Shown in pieces: positions 6,279 through 59,082 of a DNA stretch of 64,000 bases (position 1 is its first letter; every line of letters begins with the position of its first letter). This DNA is from Peptococcaceae bacterium UBA4068 (GTDB taxonomy: Bacteria; Bacillota; Dehalobacteriia; UBA4068). The position numbers were made by a program, and so were the translations under genes. The notes below the pieces were generated by a model. The model was not told where the DNA came from, ran no database searches, and worked only from the letters and a program-made list of their open reading frames with translations. Location of the stretch: the NCBI GenBank assembly GCA_002382665.1, contig DFZA01000009.1:294495-358494 (forward strand), given 5' to 3'.

Positions 6279-6536
6279 TGAAACTGTCAAAAAGTATCAG
6301 CGAGCTGAGAAACAAGCGAGACCAGGCGTCGTCGAAACCGGCGACCTAGCTGACTTTTACCTTGCGGAAAAACAGCAGCTAATGTCTTCGCATCGTGTAA
6401 AAGATACGCCGAGGAGACGGTGATGATCTGAACGACGACCTAGCTGGCTTTTAACTTGCGGTAAAACCGCAGCTAATGCACTAGCTGCGCTGCTTCGCTG
6501 CTTCGCGTCGTATCGCGAAGTGTATCGGCACGCTGA
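6279..6536 (+). repeat. Multi-copy intergenic element, long mosaic copy with an internal approximately 40 nt duplication
   Basis: 5' module AACTGTCAAAAAGTATCAGCGAGCTGAGAAACAAGCGAGACCAGGCG and 3' module TCGCGAAGTGTATCGGCACGCTGA. Internal duplicated block ACCTAGCTG(A/G)CTTTTA(C/A)CTTGCGG(A/T)AAAAC(A/C)GCAGCTAATG. Flanked by a 21 bp direct repeat. Confidence 0.8.
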
Positions 6537-6557
6537 CAAGCCGCTAAAAGCGGCTTG
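6537..6557. terminator. Second copy of terminator hairpin CAAGCCGCTAAAAGCGGCTTG followed by T7
   Basis: Identical 21-mer to 6258-6278. Overlaps the last codons (KKTSRF*) of the minus-strand gene 6544..7062. Confidence 0.8.
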
Positions 6558-7062
6558 TTTTTTTAGCTGCCTTACGACAGGCATACTGCAAACCAAACAC
6601 AGTTATCAGCAATGCCGCTGCAATACCCCAGATACCCAAACCAATACCGTTGGCATTCCCCTGTGCTGTTGTAATCATACCATAGCCGATATAGTAAAAC
6701 ATACCTACGCAGATTAGTTTGACCAAAGACAGTCCGGCAAATATAACCGCCAAGACAGGGACGGCATTCTCTTTGGTAATCGTCACGTTGAGATTAACCA
6801 TTTTGGGGAAAAAACGCACTAACGATATAACTATGTAAACTAAAATCATTATGCCGGCAAAAAATAAGATACTGTTTTTATTGCTCCAACTATCCGGCAT
6901 ACCGTTCGCGCCAAAATGGCTGGGAATCACATCAGGTAATGCGGCATATTTACTAAAAATTAATACTAAAGTAAGAATTAATCCAACAGCAGCCAATACT
7001 TCGCAGATAATTTCCATTTTGCTGCGAGGGATTTGCGGTAATTCGAAATCAATTTTGAGCAT
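6544..7062 (-). CDS. DUF1648-family membrane protein
   Basis: IPSHFGANGMPDSWSNK motif typical of DUF1648 (SdpI/YhfL-like), 4 TM helices. Confidence 0.6.
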   Translation of the reverse strand: MLKIDFELPQIPRSKMEIICEVLAAVGLILTLVLIFSKYAALPDVIPSHFGANGMPDSWSNKNSILFFAGIMILVYIVISLVRFFPKMVNLNVTITKENAVPVLAVIFAGLSLVKLICVGMFYYIGYGMITTAQGNANGIGLGIWGIAAALLITVFGLQYACRKAAKKTSRF

Positions 7063-7082
7063 ACCAACAACCTCTTTCTTTA

Positions 7083-7829
7083 TTATTCAATAGTCAGAAT
7101 GATCGGCTCTCCATCAGTTACTACAACAGTATGCTCAAATTGTGCAACTCTGTTATTGTGAGGTGTTTTAAGCGTCCAGCCGTCATTTTCCTCTAACACA
7201 TAATCGTCCCCTTCGGAAACAAACGGCTCTATCGCCAATACCATACCTGATTTGAGCAAGCGTTTATCCCGCTTTTCATGATAATTGTATATACTCTCAG
7301 GATCATCGTGAAGCGAATGACCAACGCCGTGTCCGCATAAATTGCGGATAGTTTTATAACCTTGCTTATGAGCTTCTTTTTCAACAATTAAACCCAGTTC
7401 ATTTAAGGGGAAACCATCACGGGCTGCCGCGATAGCTTTATCAAGAGCCGTCAGGCAACATGCAAATAATTTCTCGGTATTGTGCTTAACAGGCGGCACG
7501 GCGAAAGTTGACGCGGTATCGCTAAAGAAACCATCTTTAACCGCTGAGACATCAATATTTACTGTATCTCCGGCCTGAATAACCCTTTCGGATGGAATAC
7601 CATGAGCTACCACCTCATTTACGCTGATGCAGGTATGGCCGGGAAAATCGTAGCAGAAAATCGGCGCCGATTTTGCGCCGTAACTCTCCATTATCTGGCG
7701 TCCATATTCATCCAATTCTTTTGTAGTAATGCCAGGTTTTACTGCTTCGCCCATTTTACGCAGCGTAATTGCCGCGATCCGGCCAATTTCTCTCATTGCG
7801 TCCATTTCTGCAGCAGTAGTAATTATCAT
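7083..7829 (-). CDS. map: methionine aminopeptidase type I
   Basis: Pita-bread fold motifs (FCYDFPGH, HGVGHSLHDDP, LAIEPFVSEG), 248 aa. Confidence 0.9.
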   Translation of the reverse strand: MIITTAAEMDAMREIGRIAAITLRKMGEAVKPGITTKELDEYGRQIMESYGAKSAPIFCYDFPGHTCISVNEVVAHGIPSERVIQAGDTVNIDVSAVKDGFFSDTASTFAVPPVKHNTEKLFACCLTALDKAIAAARDGFPLNELGLIVEKEAHKQGYKTIRNLCGHGVGHSLHDDPESIYNYHEKRDKRLLKSGMVLAIEPFVSEGDDYVLEENDGWTLKTPHNNRVAQFEHTVVVTDGEPIILTIE

Positions 7830-7910
7830 TAATAGCCTCCTGAATGATTTATTTTAACATATAATATCACATTTCTACATTTGATGCAAAAATCCGCATC
7901 AGATATATAA

Positions 7911-8110
7911 GAGAACGGTCATTTACGACCGTTCGAGCCTGTAGACAAAGTATAAGGCTCCTAGACTGAGATAAAAGGCCAAGTCCTAGGCGGCAGCCAA
8001 GGCCAGGCCGGGAGCGTATACGGTAATACGTGACCAGCCTGGACTTTAGGCTGCCAACAACGGAATTGGCCTTTTATCTACGGTCTGGAACGGTCATTTA
8101 TGACCGTTCC
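7911..8110. repeat. Structured intergenic element: 154 nt long imperfect palindrome (7934-8087) bracketed by two direct copies of a 22 bp hairpin (GAACGGTCATTTA(C/T)GACCGTTC)
   Basis: Outer stem GATAAAAGGCC/GGCCTTTTATC; inner stems GGCAGCC/GGCTGCC, CCAGGC/GCCTGG and CGTAT/ATACG. The 22 bp bracketing hairpins are at 7911-7932 and 8088-8110. Confidence 0.65.
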
Positions 8111-8268
8111 TTATGCTTCGGCAGTCTACCTGACTTTTTTAAAGCTTCCCGTAATAAATACTCAATATGCCCATTAACACTGCGCAGCTCATCAGCGGCC
8201 CAACCTTCGAGAGCTTTATAAATATCGCCGTCTATACGCAGCGGAAAGCTCTTACGTTCGCTCATCGT

Positions 8269-9198
8269 TTAATACATGCTCCCAACATTGATTACGGGCT
8301 GTGACGAACGATCAGCGATGATGGCAACCATAATGTTATTAATCATGTTGAACTTGCGCTCATCGTCCAACTCAATAGAACTAATCTTTTGTAAATCATC
8401 AATAGCCATTGTCGCCATACCAACCGCACCGTCAACAATAATCCGCCTTGCCGCCAATATTGCCGAGGCTTGCTGCCGCTGAAGCATTGCACTGGCAATC
8501 TCGGTCGCATACGCCAGATGGGTCAACCGTGCTTCCAAAACCTCAACTCCCGCCTGTCCCAGGCGTGCAGAGGTTTCCTGCATTAATTGCGCCGATACTT
8601 CATCGGCATTGGCGCGCAGCGAAAATCCCTGCTCATCAAAATTATCATACGGATATTGGGCAGCAACATGACGCAACGATGTTTCGCTTTGGATCTCTAC
8701 AAATTCTTCATAGTTGTTAACGTCAAGTAAAGCTTTGGCGGCATCAACTACCCTGAATACAATAACAGCGGCTATTTCTATGGGATTACCGTTTATATCA
8801 TTTACTTTTAGCTTTTCACTGTTAAAGTTGCGTATCCGCAGCGATACTTTTTTAGATGTTGAAAAAGGTACCGTTAACCAGATACCGTTTTGGCGGATAC
8901 AACCGATATACCGTCCAAAAAAAATCACTACCGCAGCGGTATTAGGTTGAACAATCACCATTCCGGTCGCTAAAATTACAAATATAATTATACTAATAAC
9001 CGCAACAGTAATATAAAGGTTAGTATGCAGCATGACCCCGCTTCCAAGCAAATAAAAGCAATAGATACTTAACCCCAGAAAAATAATAATCAAAAGTAAT
9101 CCAATAAAGCCGTTGATTTTCCAAACAGGTTTTTCCGCGATTTGTTTATTTTCCTTGTCCATTAAAATCCTCCTAATTTGTTTCAAGAATAGCTTCAT
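8269..9198 (-). CDS. SPFH/band-7 domain membrane protein (stomatin/flotillin-like)
   Basis: N-terminal TM helices followed by an SPFH-like core with a C-terminal coiled-coil/Ala-rich region. Confidence 0.6.
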
Positions 9199-9285
9199 GT
9201 CTGATATATATATGATATCACATACATATCACTATTTCAAGTATATTGTATTAAATTATAATTTTTTTTAAAAAATAGCCTTCTG

Positions 9286-9714
9286 CTAAATTTTTTCCAC
9301 AATATTGATTTGCCAGTTTATATGATTAATATCATGCTGGGTTTGTTGTACTTGTTTTATTAAATCTGCGGCAGTTGCATAATCACCCTTTCCGGTATAA
9401 TAATTACTTAACGCTATTGATAATTGTTGTTGTTGATCTGATAATGTTTGTATTTGGTTTTGACGACGTAGGTAAAGCTGGCTGCAGCAATATTCGGAGC
9501 CGCCGGCAAAGAACCAGACCGCCGAAAAAACAAAAATTACAACCACTACTCCGCCGACAATTCTTAATAATACACGTCTTTTCAGCATTATTTTTAACCT
9601 CCGCAACAATCGTTTGCTGAGGTTTTTCTCTGCCAAAACAGCCAATACCTTTACACAAATACCAACAAATACCCCAGTAACAATACTATATCCGACAGAT
9701 TCTTTATGTCGCAT
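9286..9714 (-). CDS. hypothetical membrane protein
   Basis: 142 aa, one or two TM helices and a Q-rich C-terminal half. Immediately upstream of the SPFH gene. Confidence 0.4.
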   Translation of the reverse strand: MRHKESVGYSIVTGVFVGICVKVLAVLAEKNLSKRLLRRLKIMLKRRVLLRIVGGVVVVIFVFSAVWFFAGGSEYCCSQLYLRRQNQIQTLSDQQQQLSIALSNYYTGKGDYATAADLIKQVQQTQHDINHINWQINIVEKI

Positions 9715-9921
9715 TTATGCTTGTTTTCCAATCCTTAACGTCATCTTTATCGGAAAGCAATTATAATAAAGTAAACGGATGAGCCCATATAATCATTGAC
9801 ATACTAGGATCAAGGGCTTACCGGAAAAAGGATGGAGTGATCTATAATGGGAGTCATGCTGGCGGTTTCAGCAATTATTGCTCTGGCATAGTAAAATATC
9901 TGTTTTACGTCTTATTCAGGG

Positions 9922-10246
9922 GTGAGAATTTATTATCCAGATCATCTTATTTTTTTTACTGTTGCTGGTAGTGATCTACATACCCCTGGGGATATATTAG
10001 TTATAACAGACCAAAAAGTAATGCTTTCTGAATTATTATGCCCATCGAAACAGGCATTTATAAACGGCCATTTAACGCCAATCAAGTACGATTTGGGGAC
10101 TTTACGGAAACGATGCTTATAAAAGCGGGATATAAGCTTTGCGGTTCAATATGGCAAATATCCGCAGAAAACTGGAAATAAATCCCGGCGAGCCCAAATA
10201 TATCGTAACAGAAGTCGGCATCGGCTACCGTATGATCGAACAATAA
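9922..10246 (+). pseudogene. Decayed OmpR-family response regulator, winged-helix C-terminal fragment with frameshift and stop
   Basis: The frame ending at 10246 encodes RFNMANIRRKLEINPGEPKYIVTEVGIGYRMIEQ*, the OmpR wing signature. Just upstream, ...WGLYGNDAYKSGI* is interrupted by a stop. A further upstream frame reads LTPIKYDLGTLRK (helix alpha2-like). No receiver domain is present. Confidence 0.6.
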
Positions 10247-10341
10247 ATAGTATAAATATTATCCTAAAAAAAAGATGATATAGTTTTTTACTATATCATC
10301 TTTTTTTATTATTGAATATTACCTTTAAGTTTATTTGCAAT

Positions 10342-10617
10342 TTATGAAGTACGTCGCACGTTGACAATAGGAATATTAGCCAGTAGTGCCACTCCGTCAA
10401 CTTCCCTGCTTAATGACACCTCAAGTGCGCTCGTGTCTATTTCCATATACTTACCAATCGTTGCGATCAAATCCTCGCGGAGGTTTTCCATAATACTTTC
10501 AGATATATCAAGGCGGTCATGAACCAGCACCAGACGTAACCGTTCTTTTGCTATGTTTTTGCTGCTTAACTCGTCATCCTTGCCAAAAAAGTGAGCGAGA
10601 AAGCTGACAATACTCAT
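10342..10617 (-). CDS. minE: cell division topological specificity factor MinE
   Basis: MSIVSFLAHFFGK...AKERLRLVLVHDR. ATG at 10617 is preceded by a GGGGG Shine-Dalgarno. The longer tracker ORF to 10641 lacks an RBS. Confidence 0.85.
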   Translation of the reverse strand: MSIVSFLAHFFGKDDELSSKNIAKERLRLVLVHDRLDISESIMENLREDLIATIGKYMEIDTSALEVSLSREVDGVALLANIPIVNVRRTS

Positions 10618-10630
10618 ATCTTTTCCCCCT

Positions 10631-11428
10631 TTATTCTCCACTGAATAAGCTCTTGAGACGACTAAAGAAACTGTTTTTCTTAGGCGTCAAAGTCATTAAC
10701 GGCACCTCTTCACCACAGAGGCGATGGGCAATATTGCGATACGCCTGTCCGGGTAACGACGCGTCATCCATGACTGTCGGTTCACCGCGATTGGTTGAGA
10801 TAATAATCGCATCATCATCAGGAACGATGCCGAGCAGCTCCACTGCCAGAATACTAAGTATATCGTCAACACTCATCATATCACCGGTTTGGACCATATT
10901 GGTACGAATACGGTTAATGATCAAGCGCGGCGAACGAACTTCGGCTGCTTCCAGTAAACCAATGATTCTGTCGGCGTCACGCACAGCAGATACTTCAGGC
11001 GTTGTAACAACGATTGCTTCTTCAGCGCCGGCTATAGCATTTCTGAAACCATGTTCAATACCGGCAGGGCAATCGATAATCACAAAGTCAAATTCATCTT
11101 TAAGCTTATCGCAAAGCTCAACCATCTGATCTTCAGTAACAGCCGTTTTATCCTTGGTTTGCGCCGCTGGTAACAGAAACATATTCTCAAAACGCTTATC
11201 CTTAATTAGCGCTTGGTTAAGACGGCAATTTCCGCGCACCGCATCGACTATATCATAAACGATACGGTTCTCCAACCCCAAAACAACATCAAGATTACGC
11301 AGGCCGATATCAGTATCAACCATTACAACTTTTTTATCAAACATGGCTAGTGCCGTACCTAAATTAGCAGTCGTGGTAGTTTTACCAACGCCGCCTTTAC
11401 CGGAAGTAATAACTATTACTTTTCCCAT
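10631..11428 (-). CDS. minD: septum site-determining ATPase MinD
   Basis: Deviant Walker A GKGGVGKTT. Start MGKVIVITSGKGG at 11428 is preceded by AAGGAGG. Confidence 0.9.
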   Translation of the reverse strand: MGKVIVITSGKGGVGKTTTTANLGTALAMFDKKVVMVDTDIGLRNLDVVLGLENRIVYDIVDAVRGNCRLNQALIKDKRFENMFLLPAAQTKDKTAVTEDQMVELCDKLKDEFDFVIIDCPAGIEHGFRNAIAGAEEAIVVTTPEVSAVRDADRIIGLLEAAEVRSPRLIINRIRTNMVQTGDMMSVDDILSILAVELLGIVPDDDAIIISTNRGEPTVMDDASLPGQAYRNIAHRLCGEEVPLMTLTPKKNSFFSRLKSLFSGE

Positions 11429-11464
11429 CTCGTGTCCTCCTTGCAAATGAGCTAATTCCGCCAA

Positions 11465-11842
11465 TTATTTGGGTGTGTTATATTCTTCGATAATTACTTC
11501 GTCATCTTTAATCCTTGCCGTCTCCGGTCGATAAGATCTGTCTTTACTACAGCCGTCGGGAGGACGGGTTATGTGGGTAGCGATCCTCAATTGTGTCGGT
11601 ATCAATTCCAACGCCGTTATGGTAGCATCCTCATTACCGGTAGAACCGGCATGTACAACTCCACGCAATGTACCCATAACAACTATATGACCTACTGCCG
11701 CAACCTCTGCCCCAGGGTTAACATCACCTAATACTACTACATTACCATCAGAATTAATACTCTGACCGGAACGCAGTGTATGGTTAACCATTGTTGTCGG
11801 CAGATTGGTTAATCTATCCGGCCATTCCATTAAAAAATTCAC
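11465..11842 (-). CDS. minC: septum site-determining protein MinC, short form with the C-terminal beta-helix domain only
   Basis: 125 aa with the C-terminal MinD-binding region (VVVLGDVNPGAEV...). Located upstream of minDE. Confidence 0.7.
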   Translation of the reverse strand: MNFLMEWPDRLTNLPTTMVNHTLRSGQSINSDGNVVVLGDVNPGAEVAAVGHIVVMGTLRGVVHAGSTGNEDATITALELIPTQLRIATHITRPPDGCSKDRSYRPETARIKDDEVIIEEYNTPK

Positions 11843-11966
11843 TCCTCATATTTATATCATAACAGTTAGTTTTCTATATCCAATATCTTTTTCCTGCCGA
11901 TTATCAGGCTTTAATGATATTTAAAATCTTATAGCAGCTATTCTTCATAAGATATAACTTATTACA

Positions 11967-41910: not shown

Positions 41911-43095
41911 TTAAATTAGTCTTAAGACAGCAGCTTCGCCAACTGCTATATCCAGCTTTATACCGAAGTGCGCAAAAGCTTTTCCAATCATCGCCAGATA
42001 CGTAGGAACCATAATCGGGTTTGCTGCATTACCCATATGTTCAAATCCAATGATAATTTTCGCATGTTCGCCAATTCCGGTAATCATGAACAAACCATAT
42101 TTTTCATTTACGTAGTGACAGAATTCATCTGTATCAACGCCTGCGGGGCATTTAAAGGTTGTGCAGCTATTGGCAGCGATATCTTCCGTTGCCGCCCAAG
42201 TCTCCAAACCCATCGCCCGTAATCCGGCACGAAAAGCTTTGGCGCATTGCGCATGACGTGCGACAACATTATCTATTCCTTCCGCCAATATCTCATCGGC
42301 AGCAACACTGATGGCATAAACCAGTGAAACAGATGGGGTGCAAGGAAAAGTAGCCCTGTCGGCATCGATCCACATTTCTTTCCAATCCAACAGGCACATT
42401 TCGCTCCATCTGGGCGGATTTTTCTTCTTCATTTTATCCCAAGCTCTATCGCTAACAGCAACCATGCTTAATCCCGGAGGAGCTCCGATACATTTCTCAG
42501 AAGCGGCAACCACGACATCAGCTTTCCATTCATCAATATTTACATCAGTACTGGCAACGCCGGAAGCGCTATCAACAATAGTGATAACCCCTCTTTGATA
42601 TGCCAATTGACAAATTTCTTTTGCGGGATTTATTGTTCCCGAAGGAGTTTCGGATTGAACTATCGACAGAACTTTGATATCCGGATTTTCATTAAGCGCT
42701 TTTTCTACCGCTTCTACTGGTACAGCTTGATTGTATTCAACGGCTATTTCTATTGTCTTTCCGCCATAAGTATTAATCCAGCCTTCATATCCCTTACCAT
42801 AGTATCCGGACACAACATTTAGGCATTTGTCCCCTGGAGCAATCAGTCCATATGCAGCAGCTTCCAGAGCTAACAGAGCATCTCCTTGAACAATAACAAC
42901 ATCATTCTTAGTTTTCATGATTTGCTGATACTTTTTCACTGTATCCGCAAAATATTCAATAAAAGCAGAGCTGTGATAATGCAATAACGGCTGGCTTCCG
43001 GCCGCTAAAACATACGGGGATACTATACTCGGAGCAGCAGTTTTTTCAAACATTGGCCATCCATTACCTAGAACAGGCTGTCCAGTCTTATTCAT
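41911..43095 (-). CDS. class V (AGXT-family) PLP-dependent aminotransferase, paralog 1
   Basis: Fold-type I class V pattern (HSETPSGT, KC.GAPPG). Start MNKTGQP is preceded by AGGGAG. About 75 percent identical to 43511..44695. Confidence 0.75.
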   Translation of the reverse strand: MNKTGQPVLGNGWPMFEKTAAPSIVSPYVLAAGSQPLLHYHSSAFIEYFADTVKKYQQIMKTKNDVVIVQGDALLALEAAAYGLIAPGDKCLNVVSGYYGKGYEGWINTYGGKTIEIAVEYNQAVPVEAVEKALNENPDIKVLSIVQSETPSGTINPAKEICQLAYQRGVITIVDSASGVASTDVNIDEWKADVVVAASEKCIGAPPGLSMVAVSDRAWDKMKKKNPPRWSEMCLLDWKEMWIDADRATFPCTPSVSLVYAISVAADEILAEGIDNVVARHAQCAKAFRAGLRAMGLETWAATEDIAANSCTTFKCPAGVDTDEFCHYVNEKYGLFMITGIGEHAKIIIGFEHMGNAANPIMVPTYLAMIGKAFAHFGIKLDIAVGEAAVLRLI

Positions 43096-43446
43096 ATTTA
43101 CATCTCCCTTATTTATTGGCATTAAATCATTAACCGAGTAAACAAACTACAAAATATATATATGTTAATAAATTCCCCGACATAACATTACTCAAAAAAA
43201 AGAAAAGTTCTTCTCGCATATAAACCTTCAAACAAACACTCTCCCAACCCCTGCAGGGGTACTCGTATTTTTTCGCACGCGAATAGAGCGTGGTTGTATT
43301 TACGCGTCGGCTTTGCTCGACGCATATAATAAAAATCGAGAAGTCGTAATTTACGACTTCCCGATTAACATCATTTTTAGGTTGTTCTTAAAATTCAACT
43401 ATAATCAAGGACTATGCTAACAGCTCATAAAATAATTAACGAGAAT

Positions 43447-43490
43447 ACCTAAAGGTTTGAAGTCAAATGCTCGTTACTAGAGCATTTGAC
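43447..43490 (-). terminator. Terminator hairpin of aminotransferase paralog 2 (14 bp stem)
   Basis: GAAGUCAAAUGCUC-uaguaac-GAGCAUUUGACUUC directly after the stop, with a weak U tail. Confidence 0.6.
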
Positions 43491-43510
43491 TTCTTCTCCT
43501 CAATCTAATC

Positions 43511-44695
43511 TTATAACAGCTCTAAAGCTGCGGCTATGCCAGCTGCGGTATCGTATTTCTTACCAAAGTCCTCAAATGTTTTCCCGATCATTCCCAATAC
43601 GGCAGGAACCATGATCGGGCGGGCAGTATAGCCCATATGACCTATTCTAAGTATCAGTTTGGCATGGTCGCGCAATCCAGCTGCAATAAATAAACCATAC
43701 TTTTCACGCAGATGATAACGGAATTTAAGAGTATCAATGCCTTCAGGACATTTAAAGGTCGTGCAGGCGTTGGCAGCAATATCATCAGTAGCAGCCCAAG
43801 TCTCCAGACCCATCGCACGCAGGCCGACACGATATGCTTTTGCGACTTGAGCATGACGCGCAATAACATTATCAAGGCCTTCAGCCAACATTTCATCGGC
43901 GGCAGCGCTGATACCATATACCAGTGATACGGAAGGAGTGCAAGGATAGCCAGCGCAGTCGGTATCAATCCACATTTCTTTCCAATCCAACAGGCACATT
44001 TCGCTCCATCTGGGCGGATTTTTCTTTTTCATTTTATCCCAAGCTCTATCGCTTACGGCTAACATGCTCATTCCGGGAGGTGCGCCAACACATTTCTGAG
44101 AACCGGTTACCAGAACATCGGTTTTCCAATCATCAACATTAACATCATAACCGCCAACTCCGGAAACGCTATCAACAATAGTGATAACTCCTCTTTCATG
44201 AGCTAATCGGCAGATATCTCTTGCGGGGTTTAGAGTGCCGGAAGGAGTTTCGGAATGCACCATTGAAAGAACCTTAACATCAGGATTTTCGTTCAGTGCC
44301 TTTTCTACGGCTTCAACAGGTACGGCCTCGTTATATCCAACGCCAACTTCGATTGTTTTACCACCGTAAGCATCAATCCAGCCTTCGTATCCTTTGCCAA
44401 AGTAACCTGAGACAACATTGATGCATTTGTCTCCAGGGGCAATCAAACCATATGCAGCAGCTTCTAAAGCAAGTACAGCATCACCCTGTACTAAAACAAT
44501 ATCATTTTTGGTTTTCATGATTTCTTGATACTTTTTGGTAGTATCCTCGAAATATTTCATGAAAGCAGGGTCATAGTGATGCAGTACCGGCTGACCGGTT
44601 GCCGCCAAAACATATGGCGAAACCTCGGTCGGGCCAGCGGCCATGGTGAACATCGGCCATCCCTTTGTCGGAACAGGCTGTCCAGTCTTACTCAT
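43511..44695 (-). CDS. class V (AGXT-family) PLP-dependent aminotransferase, paralog 2
   Basis: Same family as the paralog above. Start is preceded by AAGGAGAG. Confidence 0.75.
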   Translation of the reverse strand: MSKTGQPVPTKGWPMFTMAAGPTEVSPYVLAATGQPVLHHYDPAFMKYFEDTTKKYQEIMKTKNDIVLVQGDAVLALEAAAYGLIAPGDKCINVVSGYFGKGYEGWIDAYGGKTIEVGVGYNEAVPVEAVEKALNENPDVKVLSMVHSETPSGTLNPARDICRLAHERGVITIVDSVSGVGGYDVNVDDWKTDVLVTGSQKCVGAPPGMSMLAVSDRAWDKMKKKNPPRWSEMCLLDWKEMWIDTDCAGYPCTPSVSLVYGISAAADEMLAEGLDNVIARHAQVAKAYRVGLRAMGLETWAATDDIAANACTTFKCPEGIDTLKFRYHLREKYGLFIAAGLRDHAKLILRIGHMGYTARPIMVPAVLGMIGKTFEDFGKKYDTAAGIAAALELL

Positions 44696-45441: not shown

Positions 45442-46002
45442 CTAAATTGACTTCACCTCTCTACCTTTTTGTTTTTTACCAAATTGGGAAATTTGAGGAT
45501 AAGCTTTTTTAACAACAAAGACGAGCGGGATAGCAATAATCGCAGCAACTACCTGCTGAACGATCTGACTTGGAAAGTCAACAAGCGCGGGGCCAAAGCC
45601 ATACAATACTAACATTGCGAGAAAGTAACCACTGGCGTCAACAATACTACCCCATATCCAGCCTATAAAAATCCATTTAAGTGTGTAACCACCGGCGCGG
45701 GCAATCAAGCCGGCAACAAGCCCCTGAGAACCATGAATAATCATTGAAAAGATTATCCACTGAGGATAACCCGTAACCAAGTCACCAATACCTGTACCAG
45801 CAGCGGCTGCGATCATACTGATCCACGGTCCAAATGTAAATGAAACCCAATAAATACCAACATTAGACAAATTCATATAACCTTTTGTGGGTGCCAACGG
45901 TATTCTCAGAGCGATTGTCAAAAAACAGACCAGAGCAATAAGCACCGCAACCAAAATTACCATACGCAAATTCAATTTTCTTGCAAAATTTTCTTTTGCC
46001 AT
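45442..46002 (-). CDS. putative ECF transporter substrate-specific (S) component, paralog 1
   Basis: About 186 aa with 5-6 TM helices and an S-component-like N-terminus (VILVAVLIALVCFLTIALRIPL). Start MAKENF is preceded by GAAGGA. Confidence 0.5.
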   Translation of the reverse strand: MAKENFARKLNLRMVILVAVLIALVCFLTIALRIPLAPTKGYMNLSNVGIYWVSFTFGPWISMIAAAAGTGIGDLVTGYPQWIIFSMIIHGSQGLVAGLIARAGGYTLKWIFIGWIWGSIVDASGYFLAMLVLYGFGPALVDFPSQIVQQVVAAIIAIPLVFVVKKAYPQISQFGKKQKGREVKSI

Positions 46003-46215
46003 ATATCCTTCTTTCTCTATGCCGGCAAATAAAAATAAAAATCTATAGGTTATTTTTGCAAAAATCATGCTATGTTATACCTCAAATATTAAGAATCAAT
46101 AATGATTTTGTAATATGAATCTTATTTATAGCCCAAGTAGGTAGTTTGCCAATAAAATTAAACAAGAAGCTGTAACCATGTACCGCTCAAAGAAAAAATA
46201 GATATTGAAAGAAAA

Positions 46216-46251
46216 GGACCTCCCATTGCAGAATAAAACAATGGGAGGTCC
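46216..46251 (-). terminator. Rho-independent terminator after S-component paralog 2
   Basis: 13 bp stem GGACCUCCCAUUG, followed by a U-rich tail on the minus strand. Confidence 0.8.
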
Positions 46252-46398
46252 TACTATCGGCATTCGGTAAAAGTAATAAATAATTGCCAAATAATTTATG
46301 TTTTTCTGTTGCACATATGAAATATTACATATTATCAATCTTATATGCTTGATACGCCGTTAAATTACAAATTTATCGCATGTATAATTAAATTTGAC

Positions 46399-46950
46399 TT
46401 ACTGCTCTTCCCATTTCTGGGTTTTGCCGAGTTGAGAAATCGGAGGGTAAGCTTTTTTAACAGCATATACGAGCGGGATACCAATAATCACAGCAACAAT
46501 CTGTTGAATTACCTGTCCCGGGAAGTCAACAACTGCGGGGCCCCAACCATACATCCAAGCTGTTGCGCCGAAGTAGCCAAGACAGTCTACGATGCTGGCA
46601 ATAAACCAACCTAATAACATCCATTTAAGTCTATAACTACCTGCTCGGGCAATCAAGCCGGCAACTAGACCCTGGGCACCATGAATGATCATTGAGAAGA
46701 CCATCCACTGAGGATAACCCATAACAGCGTCAGCAATACCAGTACCAATACCACCTGCGATCATGCTGATCCACGGACCAAATGTAAATGAAGCCCAATA
46801 AATACCAACATTAGACAAATTCATATAACCTCTTGTGGGCGCCAGCGGTATTCTGACAACAATTGTCAAAACACAGATCAAAGCAATAAGTACCGCAATC
46901 AGAGTAACCGTACGTGAATTCAAAGTATTTGCTGATTTTTCTTTTACCAT
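46399..46950 (-). CDS. putative ECF transporter substrate-specific (S) component, paralog 2
   Basis: Paralogous to 45442..46002. Start MVKEKS is preceded by AAAGGAGG. The tracker ORF extends to 46989. Confidence 0.5.
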   Translation of the reverse strand: MVKEKSANTLNSRTVTLIAVLIALICVLTIVVRIPLAPTRGYMNLSNVGIYWASFTFGPWISMIAGGIGTGIADAVMGYPQWMVFSMIIHGAQGLVAGLIARAGSYRLKWMLLGWFIASIVDCLGYFGATAWMYGWGPAVVDFPGQVIQQIVAVIIGIPLVYAVKKAYPPISQLGKTQKWEEQ

Positions 46951-47336
46951 AAAAACAACCTCCTTTTTTTTCTTTTTTGATCTGGACAATTATAAAACGA
47001 GTTCTTCGGTCATAATTAAGGACTGGGAACAAACGCTCGGTACTAGCATTCATTCTCCGTTCCCTCATCAACATAATAATATTTGCGAGCGTTCAACTTT
47101 ATGCAAACGTTTCTGAATAACAACCCCTTAAAAAATAAAATATAATTAAAAGCAAACTATGATACGATTCAGTATTATAGTCTGCTTTATTTAAGGGATG
47201 TTATTAAATAGGCGATCATTATCAAAATGAGGAATTAAAGCTCCATCATGGCAAATCGGTGAAAGAAATGAAGGCATTTATTGTAATACATACATTACTA
47301 CAATTATGAGCCGGCCTTTGCATGAGTTAAAAAAAC

Positions 47337-51096: not shown

Positions 51097-51275
51097 AAGC
51101 CGCTAGTTGCGGCTTCAGACTGTCAAAAAAGTGTTCAGCGGGCCGAGAAACGAGCGAGACCAGGCGCGTTCGAAACCGGCGACGCAGGCGCATAAAAGAT
51201 GCGTCGAGGAGACGGGGACGGACACAACGACGTATCGCGAAGTTTATCGACACGCTGAAGCCACTAGTTGCGGCT
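51097..51275 (+). repeat. Multi-copy intergenic element (core 51116-51257) flanked by a 19 bp direct repeat of the terminator hairpin AAGCC(G/A)CTAGTTGCGGCTT
   Basis: 5' GACTGTCAAAAAAGTGTTCAGCGGGCCGAGAAACGAGCGAGACCAGGCG ... 3' ACGACGTATCGCGAAGTTTATCGACACGCTGA. The hairpin copy at 51097-51115 carries the A7 run (a U run on the minus strand). Confidence 0.85.
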
Positions 51276-51301
51276 TGGTGTTATCGGGTTTATTGGGTTA
51301 A

Positions 51302-52249: not shown

Positions 52250-52275
52250 GTTGCTTCACCTCATTTAGTTTTTTA

Positions 52276-52689: not shown

Positions 52690-52781
52690 ACAGGAAACGA
52701 AATAGACGCATATTAACAGATATTAGTATTAATAAACTAAACCCAGCAATCTCAGTATAAAACAAAGAACATCTTTCTTAA

Positions 52782-54323
52782 TTATTGGAGCAAGCGTGCT
52801 AACATAGCGGCAAATTCGCCTCTTGTGACATTACTATTGGGGCGATAACTTCTATCAGGGTAGCCTTGACAAATACCTTGGGAAGCTAAAATATCTATAA
52901 CATTTGTCGCCCAATAATTATCACTAATATCAGTAAAATTATATTTATTAATTCCCTTTGATAATTGGAAATAATTAACTAATATCTGCGCCAGTTCGGC
53001 ACGGGTTACCGGGTTGTCCGGGCGAAAACTACCGTCAGGATAGCCCTTAACCCAACCTGCAGCCTGGGCGACGCCAATCGCGTCGTACGCCCAATGATTA
53101 GTACTGACATCAGTAAAAGTGGAACTAAAGCTACTGTCAACACCTTTAATTCGTGATAACATGGCAACCAATTGAGCACGGGTTAACTTATTATCAACGC
53201 CAAATAGTCCGTCTCCGACGCCATTAATTGTTAGGTTAGGCAAATTATAAAGATACATTATCGACGATTCTGCCCAATGACCTTCAATATCGTTAAATGG
53301 TACGGCGTCGCTGCCAAAACTTAAACTGGCCGTAAAATCTATCGCTAAATCACTACCATATGAAGAATAACTGATCGTATCGGGTGATTCCTGACCTTGC
53401 CGATAGAAAATATAACGGCGTTCACTGGAAACATTGGCAAAATAATCCCAATCAATATAACGGTTAGTCTGGTCACCAACTGTAAACGAATAGGTAAAAG
53501 TCGGGTCGCAAACAATCCAGCCAATATCCTTTATATAAAACTCGACCCAGGTATGTCGCAAAGTATTGAGCATTACTCTGCCCTGGTCATCAATATAATC
53601 ATTATTCAGATGCTCAGAGGGTATATAAAGATATCCGCTAAGCAGACGCGCCGGAATTCCTTGCGTACGCAGACAGGCAACTAATAATTCACTGTAATCT
53701 TCGCAAACACCACGACCGCTAAGCAGAGCATTAAGCGCTCCTTTATTGGCGTTTTCATCATTAGCGTAAGTCATATGGAGATTGACAGCAGAAAAGAGCT
53801 TTTTTGCCATCAGATAAGGATTGGTTTCACTACCAACTGCTTGTTTGGCGAAACTGATTATCTGTTTGTTATCGCTTTCAATACCGGTTTCCGGTTCAAG
53901 ATATTTACTTAGCGTCTCACTTGGCTGCAAAATATTTATAGCTGACGTATCTATATTATAACTAATGCTATAAGTAGATAGAGCATGTTTCTGGATAATG
54001 GTGACGCTTTGTCCGGCGGCTAGTGAATCAATATAATAAACAGCTTCCCTATGACCATTTTTATCAACCTTAATCTTAGATGGCCAGGGAGATAATTGCT
54101 CGATTTGCAGATTAATGTAGTCAGGCGTCGTCTCGTCCATCAGCGGCACAGAAACTGTGATATCAAAAGCAGTAAGTTTTCCGTTGTTGCTGACTTTGAT
54201 TTCATGGTTGAGAGTATAGACCCATTCGTTGTTGTAATTTATATGAGCATTATCAGCCGCCGATGCCGGTACCGACATCAGTAAGATTAGTCCCATAATA
54301 AATAAAAATATTTTTTTCGGCAT
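52782..54323 (-). CDS. secreted transglutaminase-like cysteine protease domain protein with three C-terminal SLH domains
   Basis: Signal peptide, TGase core GVCEDYSELLVACLR...H...D, and three SLH repeats (FNDIEGHWA..., FTDVSTNHWA..., FTDISDNYWA...). Confidence 0.75.
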   Translation of the reverse strand: MPKKIFLFIMGLILLMSVPASAADNAHINYNNEWVYTLNHEIKVSNNGKLTAFDITVSVPLMDETTPDYINLQIEQLSPWPSKIKVDKNGHREAVYYIDSLAAGQSVTIIQKHALSTYSISYNIDTSAINILQPSETLSKYLEPETGIESDNKQIISFAKQAVGSETNPYLMAKKLFSAVNLHMTYANDENANKGALNALLSGRGVCEDYSELLVACLRTQGIPARLLSGYLYIPSEHLNNDYIDDQGRVMLNTLRHTWVEFYIKDIGWIVCDPTFTYSFTVGDQTNRYIDWDYFANVSSERRYIFYRQGQESPDTISYSSYGSDLAIDFTASLSFGSDAVPFNDIEGHWAESSIMYLYNLPNLTINGVGDGLFGVDNKLTRAQLVAMLSRIKGVDSSFSSTFTDVSTNHWAYDAIGVAQAAGWVKGYPDGSFRPDNPVTRAELAQILVNYFQLSKGINKYNFTDISDNYWATNVIDILASQGICQGYPDRSYRPNSNVTRGEFAAMLARLLQ

Positions 54324-54450
54324 ACATCCCTCCGGTTTTGTTTTATTCTATTAAGACGGTTACATTCCTGCTGGTGTTCCATTATTGGTAAAAATGTCCA
54401 AAATGGCAAAAAAATGACGAAGCCAAGGCTCCGTCATTTTGGTATTGAAT

Positions 54451-55878
54451 TTATACCGGGCAATAGTCGACTTTCTCTTTACTTGCAGTATCACCGCTAT
54501 TAACAAGATCGTACTCTACTTTTGTTTTTCCAGCCATTCTATCTTTGAGGAATTTAGTGCCAATCGGCGGAAACATAATATACAAAAGCAGATCTTCAGG
54601 TGACTCTATCCAATTGCCGATCTCTTTCTTTGCTTCTTCAAGCTGCGGCGGAATCAAATCAGCCGGACGGCAGGTGATGTATTCGTTATCGCCCAAAATC
54701 TTGGCTTTAACTTCCGGATCCATCTCTCCGGGCGGCTGGCCGTAATGTCCGGCCACATAGCTTTTAACTTCGTTAATTACCTGACGGTAGCGCTCGCCCG
54801 TTAAAACATTCATCAACGCCTGAGTACCAACAATCTGGCTGCTGGGGGTTACCAGCGGCGGATAACCTAAGTCTTTTCGTACCCGCGGTACTTCAGCCAT
54901 AACTTCATCAAGTTTATCAATTGCATTGGCAGCTTCCAACTGTGAAATGAAGTTGGATATCATGCCACCAGGGATTTGATAAGTAAGAACATGTGGATCG
55001 ACACGAGGATCGGTATGGTCGAAAGATGCATACTTACTGCGAATGGCTTTCATTTGGGAAGCAATCGGCGAAATTTTCGCCAAATCGAGACCGGTGTCAT
55101 ATTTGGTGCCTTTGAAAGCGGCGACCATCGTTTCGGAAGCCGGCTGAGAAGTAGCCAAGGCCATGCTGGAAACAGAGCAATCTATAATATCGCAACCGGC
55201 TTCAACAGCTTTCAAATAAGCCATTGAGGCCATACCGGTAGTATAGTGGCAATGCAGCTCGATTGGCAGACCTGTCGCTTCTTTAATGCCTTTAACAAGA
55301 TCGTAAGCCCCATAGGGGAAGATGATTCCGGCCATATCTTTGATGCAGATTGAGTCAGCGCCCATATCACGTAACCGAACGCATTTTTTGATATACGCAT
55401 CAATATTGTGAATCGGACTGTTGGTATAAGAAATAGCTGCCTGAGCATGCGCGCCCTCTTTCTTAGTAGCTTGCAGCGCCCGTTCGATATTGCGAATATC
55501 GTTAAGTGCATCAAAAATACGAATGATATCAATACCGTTTCCTACCGAACGTTTAACAAATTCATCAACAACATCATCGGCATAGTGACGATAACCAACC
55601 AAGTTTTGGCCGCGTAAAAGCATCTGCAGCTTGGTGTTGGGTATCGCCTTGCGTATTTTCCGTAAACGTTCCCATGGATCCTCATTGAGATAACGCATGC
55701 AAGAGTCAAAAGTAGCTCCGCCCCATACCTCAAGCGAATGATAGCCGACTTTATCCATCTGGCCTGCTACCGATAAAATATCCTCCGTGGTTAAACGAGT
55801 GGCAAACAACGACTGGTGGGCATCACGGAATGTTGTATCGCAAATTAAAACCTTATGTCCGGTTGTTTCAACCATCAA
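54451..55878 (-). CDS. carboxyltransferase 5S-type subunit (oxaloacetate decarboxylase alpha / pyruvate carboxylase subunit B family) without a biotinyl domain
   Basis: TIM-barrel HMGL-like N-terminus (ICDTTFRDAHQS) plus the conserved C-terminal domain. No AMKM biotinylation motif. Confidence 0.75.
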   Translation of the reverse strand: MMVETTGHKVLICDTTFRDAHQSLFATRLTTEDILSVAGQMDKVGYHSLEVWGGATFDSCMRYLNEDPWERLRKIRKAIPNTKLQMLLRGQNLVGYRHYADDVVDEFVKRSVGNGIDIIRIFDALNDIRNIERALQATKKEGAHAQAAISYTNSPIHNIDAYIKKCVRLRDMGADSICIKDMAGIIFPYGAYDLVKGIKEATGLPIELHCHYTTGMASMAYLKAVEAGCDIIDCSVSSMALATSQPASETMVAAFKGTKYDTGLDLAKISPIASQMKAIRSKYASFDHTDPRVDPHVLTYQIPGGMISNFISQLEAANAIDKLDEVMAEVPRVRKDLGYPPLVTPSSQIVGTQALMNVLTGERYRQVINEVKSYVAGHYGQPPGEMDPEVKAKILGDNEYITCRPADLIPPQLEEAKKEIGNWIESPEDLLLYIMFPPIGTKFLKDRMAGKTKVEYDLVNSGDTASKEKVDYCPV

Positions 55879-56043
55879 ATTACCTCCTTAAGTCGATATG
55901 AAATTTCACAAGAAAAAGCGCGGCGGCGTTAATATGAAATTAACGCATACCGGCGTCGTTTAGACTATAACATATATACTGTAAAAAGAAAAATTATAAT
56001 TATAATCAAACAATTTGAAATATTATGAGCGATTTTAGCATGA

Positions 56044-56526
56044 TTATATAAATCCGAATTTTTTATTTAGCGCTTCCATAACAACCGGTGGCACCATGTC
56101 ATCAATGCAGCCTTTTAAAGCCGCGCTGCGTTTGATTAAACTGGAGCTGATATACAGATATTCAGCAGCGCTCATCAAGAAAACGGTTTCGATTGCCGGC
56201 TGCATTTTTTTATTGAGCAACGCCATCTGGAACTCTTTTTCAAAATCTGATACAGCGCGCAGACCACGGACGATAACGCTTGCTTTCTTTTCCATACAAA
56301 AATCCACAAGCAGACCTTCAAAAGGCTCTACGCTGACATTAGGCAGATGGTTTACGACCTGCCTGACTAAATTGCAGCGTTCCTCAAGAGTAAATAAAGG
56401 TTCTTTATAGTTATCCTCGGCAACGGCGACTATTACATTACTGAAAATATGAGAGGCGCGTTCCGCGATGTCCAAATGGCCGTAGGTAATCGGATCGAAA
56501 GTTCCCGCGTATACGACAGTTTTCAT
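56044..56526 (-). CDS. coaD: phosphopantetheine adenylyltransferase
   Basis: GTFDPITYGH nucleotidyltransferase motif, 160 aa. Confidence 0.9.
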   Translation of the reverse strand: MKTVVYAGTFDPITYGHLDIAERASHIFSNVIVAVAEDNYKEPLFTLEERCNLVRQVVNHLPNVSVEPFEGLLVDFCMEKKASVIVRGLRAVSDFEKEFQMALLNKKMQPAIETVFLMSAAEYLYISSSLIKRSAALKGCIDDMVPPVVMEALNKKFGFI

Positions 56527-56580
56527 AATTATTACTCCTTTAAAAACACTATGATACAGTATGTTGTCTGCAATAGTCTG

Positions 56581-57153
56581 TTATAAGAGTTTATTGACAA
56601 GATCTCTCAACAATTCAAGATCTTGCCGGTAAACATCGTTCAACTTTTGATTGTAGATTACAGCAGCCGGATGATAAAGCGGAAACAATGTTATTTTTTC
56701 CCGTTCAACCGATAATATCCGCCCATGATAATCGCCAAGACGGGGGTTTCGGCCAACAAAGTGAGTTAACGGAACCGCTCCCAATGTCACTATTAAACGC
56801 GGCTTTATTAAAGCCAGCTCCTGTTCCAGCCATTTGCGACATAATGCAATCTCGGTCTGCAAAGGTTTACGGTTGATCAGGCCGCGTTTGCCGACGGCAG
56901 TCGGCCGGCATTTGACAGTATTAGTGATATAAAGCTGATTCCTATTAATTCCCGTTGCTGAAAAAAACTGATCAAGCTGCTGACCGGCCTTACCGACAAA
57001 GGGCCTCCCGAGTTTATCCTCTTCCCCTCCAGGGGCTTCGCCGATTAAGAAAACAGGAGAATAAATATCTCCGGCGCCGCAAACCACTTGCGTACGGTTT
57101 TGGCAAAGACCGCAACCTTTACAGGCCGTCAGTTGTCTGCGCAGCTCATCCAT
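56581..57153 (-). CDS. uracil-DNA glycosylase family 4
   Basis: Fe-S cluster Cys motif C.GC.LC, GEAPG and F.GKAG motifs. Confidence 0.85.
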   Translation of the reverse strand: MDELRRQLTACKGCGLCQNRTQVVCGAGDIYSPVFLIGEAPGGEEDKLGRPFVGKAGQQLDQFFSATGINRNQLYITNTVKCRPTAVGKRGLINRKPLQTEIALCRKWLEQELALIKPRLIVTLGAVPLTHFVGRNPRLGDYHGRILSVEREKITLFPLYHPAAVIYNQKLNDVYRQDLELLRDLVNKLL

Positions 57154-57268
57154 TAAATTTCTCCGATTTTCTCATTTATTGTTAATTAATGTCCCCTGAA
57201 CAAAACAAAAACTAAAGCAAATCGAAGCATGCGTGAGCATCTTTCAAGTTTAGGCGTTTTTGATTTTT

Positions 57269-57418
57269 CCAAGTGCAAAACTTTGCACTTGGTGGGGCGT
57301 TTTTTTAAAAGCGCCGGTTCAGTGAGACATCAATGAGTGCTGCACAGATTGAAAACGGTACGTTTTCAATCTTTTACGCGGCTTCTGCCGCGTGAACAAA
57401 CCGAAAATCGGTTTGTTC
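57269..57418 (-). other. Cluster of five consecutive perfect hairpins in the udg 5' leader
   Basis: Minus-strand order: GAACAAACCG-N5-CGGTTTGTTC (57394-57418), CGCGGC-N4-GCCGCG (57377-57392), TTGAAAACG-N3-CGTTTTCAA (57349-57369), GGCGC-UUUUAAAAAAA-GCCCC (57291-57315), CCAAGTGCAAA-N2-TTTGCACTTGG (57269-57292). Confidence 0.6.
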
Positions 57419-57429
57419 AGTAGACACTC

Positions 57430-57458
57430 ATTATATTATAATAGCAAGAGCAAGTCAA
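57430..57458 (-). promoter_or_regulatory. Consensus sigma-A type promoter TTGACT-17-TATAAT reading toward udg
   Basis: Minus strand TTGACTtgctcttgctattataaTATAAT. Perfect -10, near-perfect -35, 17 nt spacer. Confidence 0.6.
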
Positions 57459-57491
57459 AATTTAAAGTGGGATGTTTTATCACCTCACTAA

Positions 57492-57633
57492 GACTGTCAA
57501 AAAACGCACAGCGAGCCGAGAAACAAGCGAGACCAGGCGGCAGGGAGAGCCTGCTAGGGGACGCACTAAAACGTACGTGACCAACGCCGGGGCTTCCGAC
57601 AACGACGTATCGCGAAGTTTATCGACACGCTGA
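57492..57633 (+). repeat. Multi-copy intergenic element with a divergent core, downstream of argG
   Basis: 5' GACTGTCAAAAAACGCACAGCGAGCCGAGAAACAAGCGAGACCAGGCG, 3' CGACAACGACGTATCGCGAAGTTTATCGACACGCTGA. The core is replaced by unrelated GC-rich sequence. Confidence 0.8.
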
Positions 57634-57656
57634 GTGGGGCGTTTTTAACGCCCCAC
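57634..57656 (-). terminator. argG 3' hairpin GTGGGGCGTT-N3-AACGCCCCAC without a U tail, abutting the element
   Basis: Perfect 10 bp stem directly after the argG stop. A degenerate similar sequence (AAAGTGGGATGTTTTATCACCTCACT) lies on the other side of the element at 57465-57490. Confidence 0.5.
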
Positions 57657-57673
57657 TTTATTAATAGTTGCTA

Positions 57674-58870
57674 CTACTTACCCTGCATTAAAGCTCTTAC
57701 TTTGAGCGGTAAACCAAAGAGATTGATGAATCCTTCGGCATCCTTTTGATTATAAACATCGTCTTCATCAAAAGTCGCCATCTCTGCATTGTAAAGCGAA
57801 TAAGGACTTTTGATACCGGCAACGGTGCAACTGCCTTTATAGAGCTTCATCTTAACAGTACCGGTAACAGTCTCCTGAGTTTTAGCGACAAAAGCGTCAA
57901 GCGCTTCTCTTAAGGGCGAGAACCAAACGCCATCATAAACCAAATCGGCGTAACGCAAAGCAACTTCGGCCTTGAAATGAGATGTCACTCTGTCAAGGCA
58001 GATGGTTTCCAGAGACGAATGGGCGTCGTAAAGAATCGTTCCGCCGGGTGTTTCATAAACGCCGCGTGACTTCATACCCACGAGACGGTTTTCTACCATA
58101 TCAGCAATGCCAACGCCATTGGCCGCACCGATCTTATTCAGATAACCAAGTAACTTAGCGGCGGAAAGAGCTTGTCCGTCAACTTTGACCGGAGTTCCCT
58201 GTTCAAATTCGATTTCAACAAAGGTGGGTTTGTCGGGAGCTTGTTCCGGCGGCGTACAAATCAGGTATAACGAATCCTGAGGCATATTCCAGGGATCTTC
58301 AAGATCGGCGCCTTCATGAGAAAGATGCCAAATATTGCGGTCCATACTGTAAGGCACTTTTTTAGTTACCGGCACGGGAATGTTATGCGCGGCGGCATAA
58401 TCGATGGCCTGGTTACGGGAACGGATATCCCATTCACGCCAGGGAGCAATAATCTTCATCTGCGGCGCTAAAGCTTTGATCGCCAGCTCAAAACGAACCT
58501 GGTCGTTACCTTTGCCGGTGCAGCCGTGACATACGGCGTCACAGCCTTCCTGTTTGGCGATTTCCACCAGATAACGGGCTAGCAATGGACGGGCAAAAGA
58601 GGTGCCGAGCAGGTATTTGTCTTCATATATCGCACCGGCCTTTAAGGTCGGAAACACGAAATCGGAAACAAATTCCTCAACCAGATTGCCGATGAAGAAT
58701 TTCGAGGCTCCTGATGCCAACGCTTTTTTCTCCAGCGGTGCGGTCTCGTCGCCTTGGCCGACGTCACCGCAGACCGCGATAACTTCACAGCCGTAATTTT
58801 CTTTGAGCCACGGAATGATAATTGAGGTATCAAGACCGCCGCTATACGCTAATGCAACTTTTTTAACCAT
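57674..58870 (-). CDS. argG: argininosuccinate synthase
   Basis: N-type ATP pyrophosphatase motif AYSGGLDTS, 398 aa. Confidence 0.95.
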
Positions 58871-58941
58871 TACTGTAACCTCCTAATGATTTTGTTTATA
58901 TATCAAACTAAAAAACAACATCGAGAAACAAAATATATATT

Positions 58942-59082
58942 GAGACTGTCAAAAAGTGTTCAGCGTGCTGAGAAACGAGTGAGACCAGGCGCGGTCGAAA
59001 CCGGCGACGCAGGCGTATAAAGATACGTCGAGGAGACGGTGCTGACCGCAACGACGTATCGCGAAGTTTATCGACACGCTGA
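58942..59082 (+). repeat. Multi-copy intergenic element between argG and argF
   Basis: GAGACTGTCAAAAAGTGTTCAGCGTGCTGAGAAACGAGTGAGACCAGGCGCGGTCGAAACCGGCGACGCAGGCGTATAAAGATACGTCGAGGAGACGG...ACGACGTATCGCGAAGTTTATCGACACGCTGA. Flanked by ATATAT(T) on both sides. Ends 5 nt from the argF stop. Confidence 0.85.

Follow-up and report, generated by a model that had tools for sequence, protein, structure and literature searches.

A non-coding repeat element in Peptococcaceae flanked by duplicated terminator stem-loops: a probable MITE-like transposon

We analysed a stretch of 64,000 nucleotides (nt) from Peptococcaceae bacterium UBA4068 (contig DFZA01000009.1, positions 294,495 to 358,494; hereafter the window, with positions counted from its first letter), which carries five copies of a small non-coding intergenic element. 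The element is probably a non-autonomous transposon resembling a MITE (miniature inverted-repeat transposable element), which prefers terminator stem-loops of any sequence, duplicates the whole palindrome and is moved in trans by a structure-recognising transposase. Whole-hairpin duplication was found in 13 insertions, comprising three copies in the window and ten elsewhere, each bounded by locus-specific repeats of 18-26 base pairs (bp). Since the hairpin is single in the empty sites of a relative and double around the element, the copies are insertions and the duplicated stem-loop is their target-site duplication. The family is apparently undescribed, and its insertion signature is unusual and well documented.

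Window copies, flanking stem-loops and empty sites

An earlier reading of these letters (the original prediction) had placed the same element at five loci, all on the + strand. Re-reading the sequence, we found the same element at all five places and in that orientation, with coordinates that had been accurate to 1-3 nt and are refined as follows (B modules and apex types are described further below):

Copy 1, positions 1 to 113, + strand: partial at the window edge, containing an incomplete B module, the latter half of a type-I apex and the 3' arm.
Copy 2, positions 6280 to 6536, + strand: long 257-nt variant with 5' tail, 5' arm, two B modules plus a type-I apex half, and 3' arm.
Copy 3, positions 51116 to 51258, + strand: canonical type-I copy of 143 nt.
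Copy 4, positions 57490 to 57633, + strand: 144-nt copy with the alternative type-II apex.
Copy 5, positions 58941 to 59082, + strand: canonical type-I copy of 142 nt, inside the arg operon.

The conserved ends that had been described correspond to a 22-nt 5' core (GAGAAACRAGYGAGACCAGGCG, present four times) and a 26-nt 3' module (GTATCRCGAAGTTTATCGACACGCTG, present five times), for both of which 0.00 matches are expected from 100 dinucleotide shuffles of the window. Profile searches using each arm separately detected no further or diverged copies on either strand of the window. Copy 1 lies just downstream of an MFS gene (124-1329, - strand), the B modules of copy 2 (at about 6345-6393 and 6439-6507) stand on either side of its type-I apex half, and copy 5 lies in the argF-argG spacer (argF stop at 59087, argG start at 58870) and runs antisense to argF and argG alike. 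As had been claimed, no frame is open across copies: they have no open reading frame (ORF) of at least 100 amino acids (aa) in common, module swaps and indels breaking every frame, and a single mechanically called ORF (59039-59350) touches copy 5, with no other copy touched.

The original prediction had overlooked the decisive feature, the direct duplication of a locus-specific terminator hairpin that flanks the element. The stem-loops around copies 2, 3 and 4, given without strand, are:

Copy 2 left stem-loop, positions 6258 to 6279: CAAGCCGCTAAAAGCGGCTTGT, a bidirectional terminator, target-site duplication.
Copy 2 right stem-loop, positions 6537 to 6558: 22/22 identical to the left copy, followed by a T-tract.
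Copy 3 left stem-loop, positions 51098 to 51115: AGCCGCTAGTTGCGGCTT.
Copy 3 right stem-loop, positions 51259 to 51276: AGCCACTAGTTGCGGCTT, 17/18 identical to the left one, without a T-tract.
Copy 4 left stem-loop, positions 57467 to 57489: GTGGGATGTTTTATCACCTCACT, a decayed copy of the argG terminator stem-loop.
Copy 4 right stem-loop, positions 57634 to 57657: GTGGGGCGTTTTTAACGCCCCACT, the intact argG terminator stem-loop.

With an A-run before its first stem-loop and a T-run after the second, the surroundings of copy 2 are one bidirectional terminator made into two full stem-loops. The left stem-loop of copy 3 coincides with a terminator predicted at 51116-51096 (- strand) and, together with the A-run preceding it, is predicted to be the working terminator of a - strand HD-domain gene. 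The hairpin at copy 4 has the form GTGGGGCG-TTTTTAA-CGCCCCAC. Copy 5 has no hairpin beside it, and a short TATAT repeat (58936-58940 and 59083-59087) is all that flanks it.

The ten whole-hairpin duplications outside the window come from the metagenome-assembled genomes (MAGs) UBA5757 and UBA5752 and from eight metagenomic insertions whose hairpins all differ in sequence. In 12 of the 13 cases the right repeat begins at +0 after the GCTGA of the element's right end (...CACGCTGA), the first base of the repeat being the 5' foot of the hairpin. At the left junction the hairpin is followed by 0-3 T, then (N)A, then GACTGTC; the left end of the element, (T)NA-GACTGTC..., lies 0-3 nt past the 3' foot. 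Repeat length and hairpin span (repeat/span) were 22/21, 18/17, 24/24, 26/24, 23/22, 26/23, 24/22, 25/24 and 25/24, the duplication being the hairpin span plus 0-3 nt, and the distal copy of the hairpin retains its T-tract. At a single locus, L002 (about 5840-5870 and 6076-6105, - strand), the two flanking hairpins have identical stems with a reverse-complemented loop (TAAATA versus TTATTTA).

To compare these sites with those of relatives, we used contigs reached via ArgG homologues: L035 and L036 are syntenic with the window at 47-64 kb and L039 with the window at 1-16 kb, L036 and L039 coming from one JGI metagenome and L035 being an ENA contig 99.9% identical to L036. All three are ~80% identical to the window in DNA, and no copy of the element was found in the 42 kb available from this relative. 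Each of the first four sites holds a single hairpin there, namely AAAAAACGCCCCAAAGGGCGTTATTTTTTT at the copy 1 site and AAAAAAGGCCGCTACTAGCGGCCTTTTTTT at the copy 2 site in L039, and AAGCCGTAATAACGGCTTTTTT at the copy 3 site and AAAGTGGGGTGCTAAACGCGTCCCACTTTTT at the copy 4 site in L035; at the copy 5 site, L035 has a 59-nt argF-argG spacer with neither element nor hairpin. The copies were inserted after the window lineage split from the ~80% relative. A closer relative, L037 (93% DNA identity), shares copy 5 and has a truncated and decayed copy 4.

Insertions elsewhere and their outcomes

We counted about 24 or 25 distinct insertions in all, about 20 of them outside the window in the two Peptococcaceae MAGs, several metagenomes and one phage contig. 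A pattern scan of the genome collection (GTDB) retrieved the element only in UBA5757 and UBA5752, plus one chance match; the metagenome scan yielded about 20 true loci and five chance coding matches (L009, L013, L015, L023, L031), and three viral scans yielded one true locus, L008. A BLAST search with the element gave no match in PLSDB plasmids or INPHARED phages. The hosts that carry the element span 40-62% GC.

Hairpins of unrelated sequence mark 19 of the about 24 insertions. Besides the whole-hairpin duplications, four insertions have a hairpin on one side only (left in L020, L024 and L026; right in L029) and two split a hairpin with a short repeat (L011, in the loop; L017, GAGC); L008, L016, L028 and copy 5 have no hairpin. 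Some of the insertions that lack a hairpin duplication are flanked by repeats of 4-6 bp.

On every contig with more than one copy, all of them point the same way (5/5 for the window, 4/4 for Ga0074197_1000130 with L014, L022, L024 and L032, and 2/2 for Ga0074197_1000322 with L020 and L026), which would happen by chance about once in 256. In about 10/16 contigs the C-rich strand is the one that carries the element's + strand, which usually runs opposite to most genes, which hints that the orientation bias is tied to replication.

Some of these loci show further peculiarities. In L008 (209-575, - strand) a 366-nt variant with three B modules directly follows the portal gene of a phage contig, whose terminase large subunit and portal protein were confirmed using PHROGs; phage carriage is a plausible route between hosts. 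In L019 (about 6240-6360) and L026 (3312-3591) a member of a second sub-family sits nested in another element, at the apex hairpin of the latter; compared with the main family, the arms of this sub-family have matched changes (GCGA/TCGC to GCCA/TGGC, and CAGCG.GCCGAG/TCGACACGCTG to CTGTCCAG/TGGACAG). At the nested insertion in L026 half of the apex hairpin is lost, the only partial hairpin loss among the insertions, which resembles the hairpin deletion by IS1272 considered below. In L011/L021 the element stands a few bases upstream of a putative tRNA gene start (GGTGTAGCTCAGTTGGTAGAGCAGC) in its right flank; here it apparently lies in the loop of a split hairpin (GGGCAA ... TTGCCC) and has its 5' tail replaced by unrelated sequence.

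Element structure, proposed mode of insertion and alternatives

The element ranges in size from ~142 nt up to ~370 nt and begins with a ~20-nt 5' tail (TGAGACTGTCAAAAAAGTGG), after which comes a long hairpin with imperfect pairing. The end-to-end inverted repeat of the original prediction is real and longer than had been stated, ~26 nt of the 5' arm pairing with the 3' arm: the right terminus read inward (TCAGCGTGTCGATAAAC) agrees at 14/17 positions with TCAGCGGGCCGAGAAAC, which lies 20 nt in from the left end, and the match extends to 26-nt arms. Across ten type-I copies the hairpin comprises 39 pairs, in which 95.6% of cells are paired; both sides have changed in six of the pairs, compared with 2.1 in shuffles and with 0/500 shuffles reaching six, and four of these compensatory pairs lie in the interior helix, not in the arms. 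The core proved to be mosaic, as proposed: copies 1, 2, 3 and 5 have a type-I apex, copy 4 has a type-II apex unrelated to it, and a ~70-nt palindromic module, 'B', is present 0-3 times per copy.

A conserved rod of full length with compensatory changes is also what a functional structured RNA would have (a small RNA (sRNA), a 3' untranslated region (UTR) stabiliser or an attenuator), in which case copies would be kept for their function and mobility would be incidental. The + strand of copy 5 folds with z = -4.0, G-U cells outnumber A-C cells on the + strand (23 versus 9, 8 of these from one pair, which is too weak to decide the functional strand), a U-run follows the rod on the - strand, and copy 5 is conserved relative to its flanks. 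We nevertheless consider this explanation improbable, and the sRNA branch of the original prediction finds no support as the primary identity. Rfam searches of the whole window at the gathering score gave 0 matches, and those at permissive E-values, up to 10, gave no credible match for copy 5 or the long L008 variant, on which only chance-level matches (E about 1-9) were seen; the window also contains no tRNA or tmRNA genes. A promoter would have no space, as the element comes within 0-3 nt of the hairpin. Relative to the flanking genes the element is sense (+,+) at L010, L012, L016 and L029, antisense (-,-) at copies 3-5, and between convergent genes at many other loci; a single RNA polarity is unlikely given that copies are both sense and antisense to their neighbours. 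Copy 4 decays freely in L037, and target duplications with matching empty sites indicate insertion, not descent as a gene. A conserved small ORF was also considered and rejected, since the GTG after GAGGAGA in copy 5 is not kept in copy 3.

The other branch of the original prediction, a mobile repeat of MITE or bacterial interspersed mosaic element (BIME) type, stood as far as mobility goes (target duplications, empty orthologous sites, copies in unrelated loci and in a phage), with the likeness to BIMEs limited to being a mosaic intergenic repeat. Classical MITEs (Correia, ERIC, RUP, Nezha, Chunjie) are also small, non-coding, multi-copy and intergenic, with a long hairpin, target duplications and presence/absence polymorphism. 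They make short duplications of fixed length (2-9 bp) and have inverted repeats at the very termini, whereas the duplication of the element described here is a palindrome of variable length and its left inverted repeat lies 20 nt inside the end. BOX of Streptococcus pneumoniae and the BIMEs of enterobacteria are likewise modular mosaics located between genes and at gene 3' ends, with stable RNA or DNA hairpins. BIMEs, however, are arrays of repetitive extragenic palindrome (REP) units moved by RAYT without duplication and the element has no REP unit; for BOX no hairpin-duplicating insertion has been reported, and no sequence relationship to either is evident. No family that duplicates terminators is mentioned in a review of prokaryotic MITEs from 2024 (PMC10969869), and the exact element strings are absent from the searchable literature.

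The closest parallel in target choice is the insertion sequence (IS) IS1272/TnSha1 of staphylococci, which inserts at the stem base of stem-loops that are mostly terminators just downstream of genes (PMC5678879, PMC4923244). Furi et al. described insertion into terminator hairpins confirmed by RNA-seq; it was not sequence-specific, involved partial deletion and left no duplication (PMC4923244). In the model of Wan et al., whole stem-loop duplication is one conceivable result, predicted if the 5' feet are attacked, IS1272 itself removing the stem-loop (PMC5678879). In the variant IS1272L a second copy of the left end is present in tandem (PMC5678879), which recalls the outer tail and inner left repeat of the element. 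IS1272 differs in being autonomous, with 1.9 kb and a 548-aa transposase, where the element is non-coding. By analogy, the element probably works like an IS1272-type structure-targeting transposon, and we place it in no IS family; structure recognition, attack polarity and enzyme family are what we infer for it from this comparison. ISfinder gives direct repeats of 0-60 bp for the IS1182 family, a span that could include palindrome duplications by some of its members.

In the mechanism that we propose, a transposase acting in trans would recognise the shape of its target, whether a cruciform that has been extruded or hairpins that the replication fork exposes, and gap repair would then copy the whole palindrome to both sides. 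This route would correspond to 'pathway b' in the published model for IS1272, a DDE element of the IS1182 family. Among the insertions the usual product is a stem-loop, the element, and a second stem-loop with the T-tract; less frequent are the element beside one hairpin, a split hairpin, and a 4-6 bp duplication. As the stem-loop is duplicated and not destroyed, termination of the neighbouring gene would be preserved and insertions tolerated.

Several observations weigh against this proposal. The outermost 20 nt on the left bear a weak likeness to the right terminus that 199/2000 shuffles equal in score. Stems of 8-12 bp extrude poorly as cruciforms in duplex DNA, and a two-fold symmetric cruciform does not predict the uniform orientation of copies. 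IS1272 deletes or replaces the stem-loop without duplication, in contrast to the 13 insertions in which the element duplicates it whole, and about a quarter of the insertions have no hairpin duplication. The 16-bp repeat of IS1272 (GAGTCTGGGACATAAA, from L038), the one family member compared, scores against the two termini of the element no better than 211 and 490 of 2000 shuffles. Finally, the examined loci, about 340 kb in total, yielded neither an autonomous copy nor a solitary arm nor a transposase gene, and the pattern scans likewise revealed no autonomous element with the same ends. Arm-by-arm profile searches for an autonomous copy always found the arms paired, all-against-all BLAST of the examined loci revealed no other common repeat, and tblastn with the IS1272 transposase (staphylococcal plasmid, L038) gave no match in them. 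The absence of an adjacent transposase, already claimed for the window, was borne out by Pfam searches on 20 flanking or large ORFs.

Other enzymes were weighed against the same junctions. A derivative of a single-stranded DNA transposon (IS200/IS605 PATE or RAYT/REPIN), mobilised by an HUH tyrosine transposase at the replication fork, would suit the hairpin-rich ends and asymmetric termini, hairpins forming readily in single-stranded DNA, and would also suit the uniform orientation within contigs and the C-rich + strand noted above. Peel-and-paste transposition leaves no target duplication, whereas the element is flanked by identical 22-26-bp repeats that are single in empty sites; there is no conserved 4-5-nt target, no GTAG REP motif and, in the window, no Rfam match, and we regard this origin as very improbable. 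A locus-specific repeat that is single in empty sites argues for staggered joining on two strands followed by gap repair, which would exclude HUH-type single-strand transposition as well as intron homing. Class C group II introns home just 3' of intrinsic terminator stem-loops, recognising structure; these ribozymes measure about 0.7-2 kb, carry a gene for a reverse transcriptase and leave no duplication. A group II intron was rejected for the element itself, which has no match to Rfam intron models, a 5' end of GACUGUC instead of GUGYG, and 142 nt.

During CRISPR adaptation the repeat is duplicated at spacer acquisition, and duplication of a ~24 bp palindrome is formally the same outcome. A Cas1-like enzyme (casposase or CRISPR-adaptation-like), or another ruler-type integrase attacking both ends of the palindrome, is nonetheless extremely improbable here: no cas1 gene or casposon features occur in the examined loci, and there is no fixed ruler, length varying over 18-26 bp with a hairpin and 4-6 bp without one. 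A derivative of the IS1202 family, which makes very long fixed duplications, has a similarly slight chance of being the source. Several of the duplications can be extended to 26-27 bp and one insertion has about 5 bp, and subgroups of IS1202 typically show both lengths (10.1101/2022.12.17.520857). That family makes duplications of constant length (27-28, 15-17 or 5-6 bp), which are not reported as palindromes, and has TGT ends (10.1101/2022.12.17.520857). IS1202 is autonomous with these fixed lengths, whereas the duplication of the element varies over 18-26 bp with its hairpin (18, 22, 23, 24, 25, 26) and the ends of the element are not TGT.

Spread without any transposase, in which hairpins would be sites of template switching or gene conversion as DNA is replicated or repaired, could account for the inverted hairpin loop of L002 and for microhomology between element end and hairpin at L010 and copy 1. 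The target hairpins have no homology to each other or to donor flanks, and the junctions are exact at hairpin feet in 12/13 cases, which makes this route scarcely credible. Two recombination-site candidates were also tried and rejected: an attC-like site, as the R'/R'' consensus is absent, and an Xer/dif module, as the flanking hairpins are locus-specific.

A bolder claim builds on the transposon reading: that this is the first natural transposable element which normally duplicates an entire terminator stem-loop with its end exactly at the hairpin foot, moved by a structure-reading transposase (IS1182-type with an attack polarity opposite to that of IS1272, or a new replication-coupled enzyme), and with at least one copy possibly adopted by the host in the arg operon. 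We consider this claim possible and, taken as a whole, doubtful. Transposons that read DNA shape are poorly understood, and the mechanism of IS1272 is still a drawn model. The family offers a natural data set, with exact hairpin-foot junctions, matched empty sites and several outcome classes, which fixes the position of strand joining and suggests how elements may colonise terminators without destroying them. If the enzyme were found, structure-directed integration beside terminators would be a safe-harbour property of possible practical use. For annotation, twin terminators ~140 bp apart, long 3' UTRs and the arg-operon insert could otherwise be read as regulatory RNAs.

Copy 5 and other features of the loci

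Copy 5 is 140/142 identical between the window (58941-59082) and L037 (2629-2770), while identity in the adjoining genes is 93-95% overall and 83-87% for third codon positions. This slower change of copy 5 than of its flanks may reflect either constraint at the level of the host or homogenisation of copies by gene conversion. No such constraint is seen in copy 4.

Beside copy 4, the spacer between argG and the UDG gene measures 520 nt, compared with 90 nt in L035 and 162 nt in L037. In addition to the element it contains about 280 extra nt (region 57150-57465, - strand), starting with a near-consensus promoter (TTGACT-17-TATAAT, 57458-57430) followed by four perfect hairpins, for example GAACAAACCGATTTTCGGTTTGTTC and CCAAGTGCAAAGTTTTGCACTTGG. 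No credible Rfam match was obtained for the spacer (57.1-57.5 kb) at permissive E-values; the extra sequence could be an sRNA gene or another small insert.

The window also contains two tandem gene duplications with long spacers between genes (41911-44695 and 45442-46989, - strand). One pair encodes class-V aminotransferases of 403 and 394 aa, and the other encodes riboflavin-type S components of ECF transporters of 208 and 196 aa, with a 948-nt period and 77-81% DNA identity. No riboswitch was detected here. In the relative's contig L039 (10001-11540), a cardiolipin synthase gene is called as two overlapping ORFs of 358 and 174 aa, an apparent frameshift or assembly error, whereas the window has one intact 512-aa gene.

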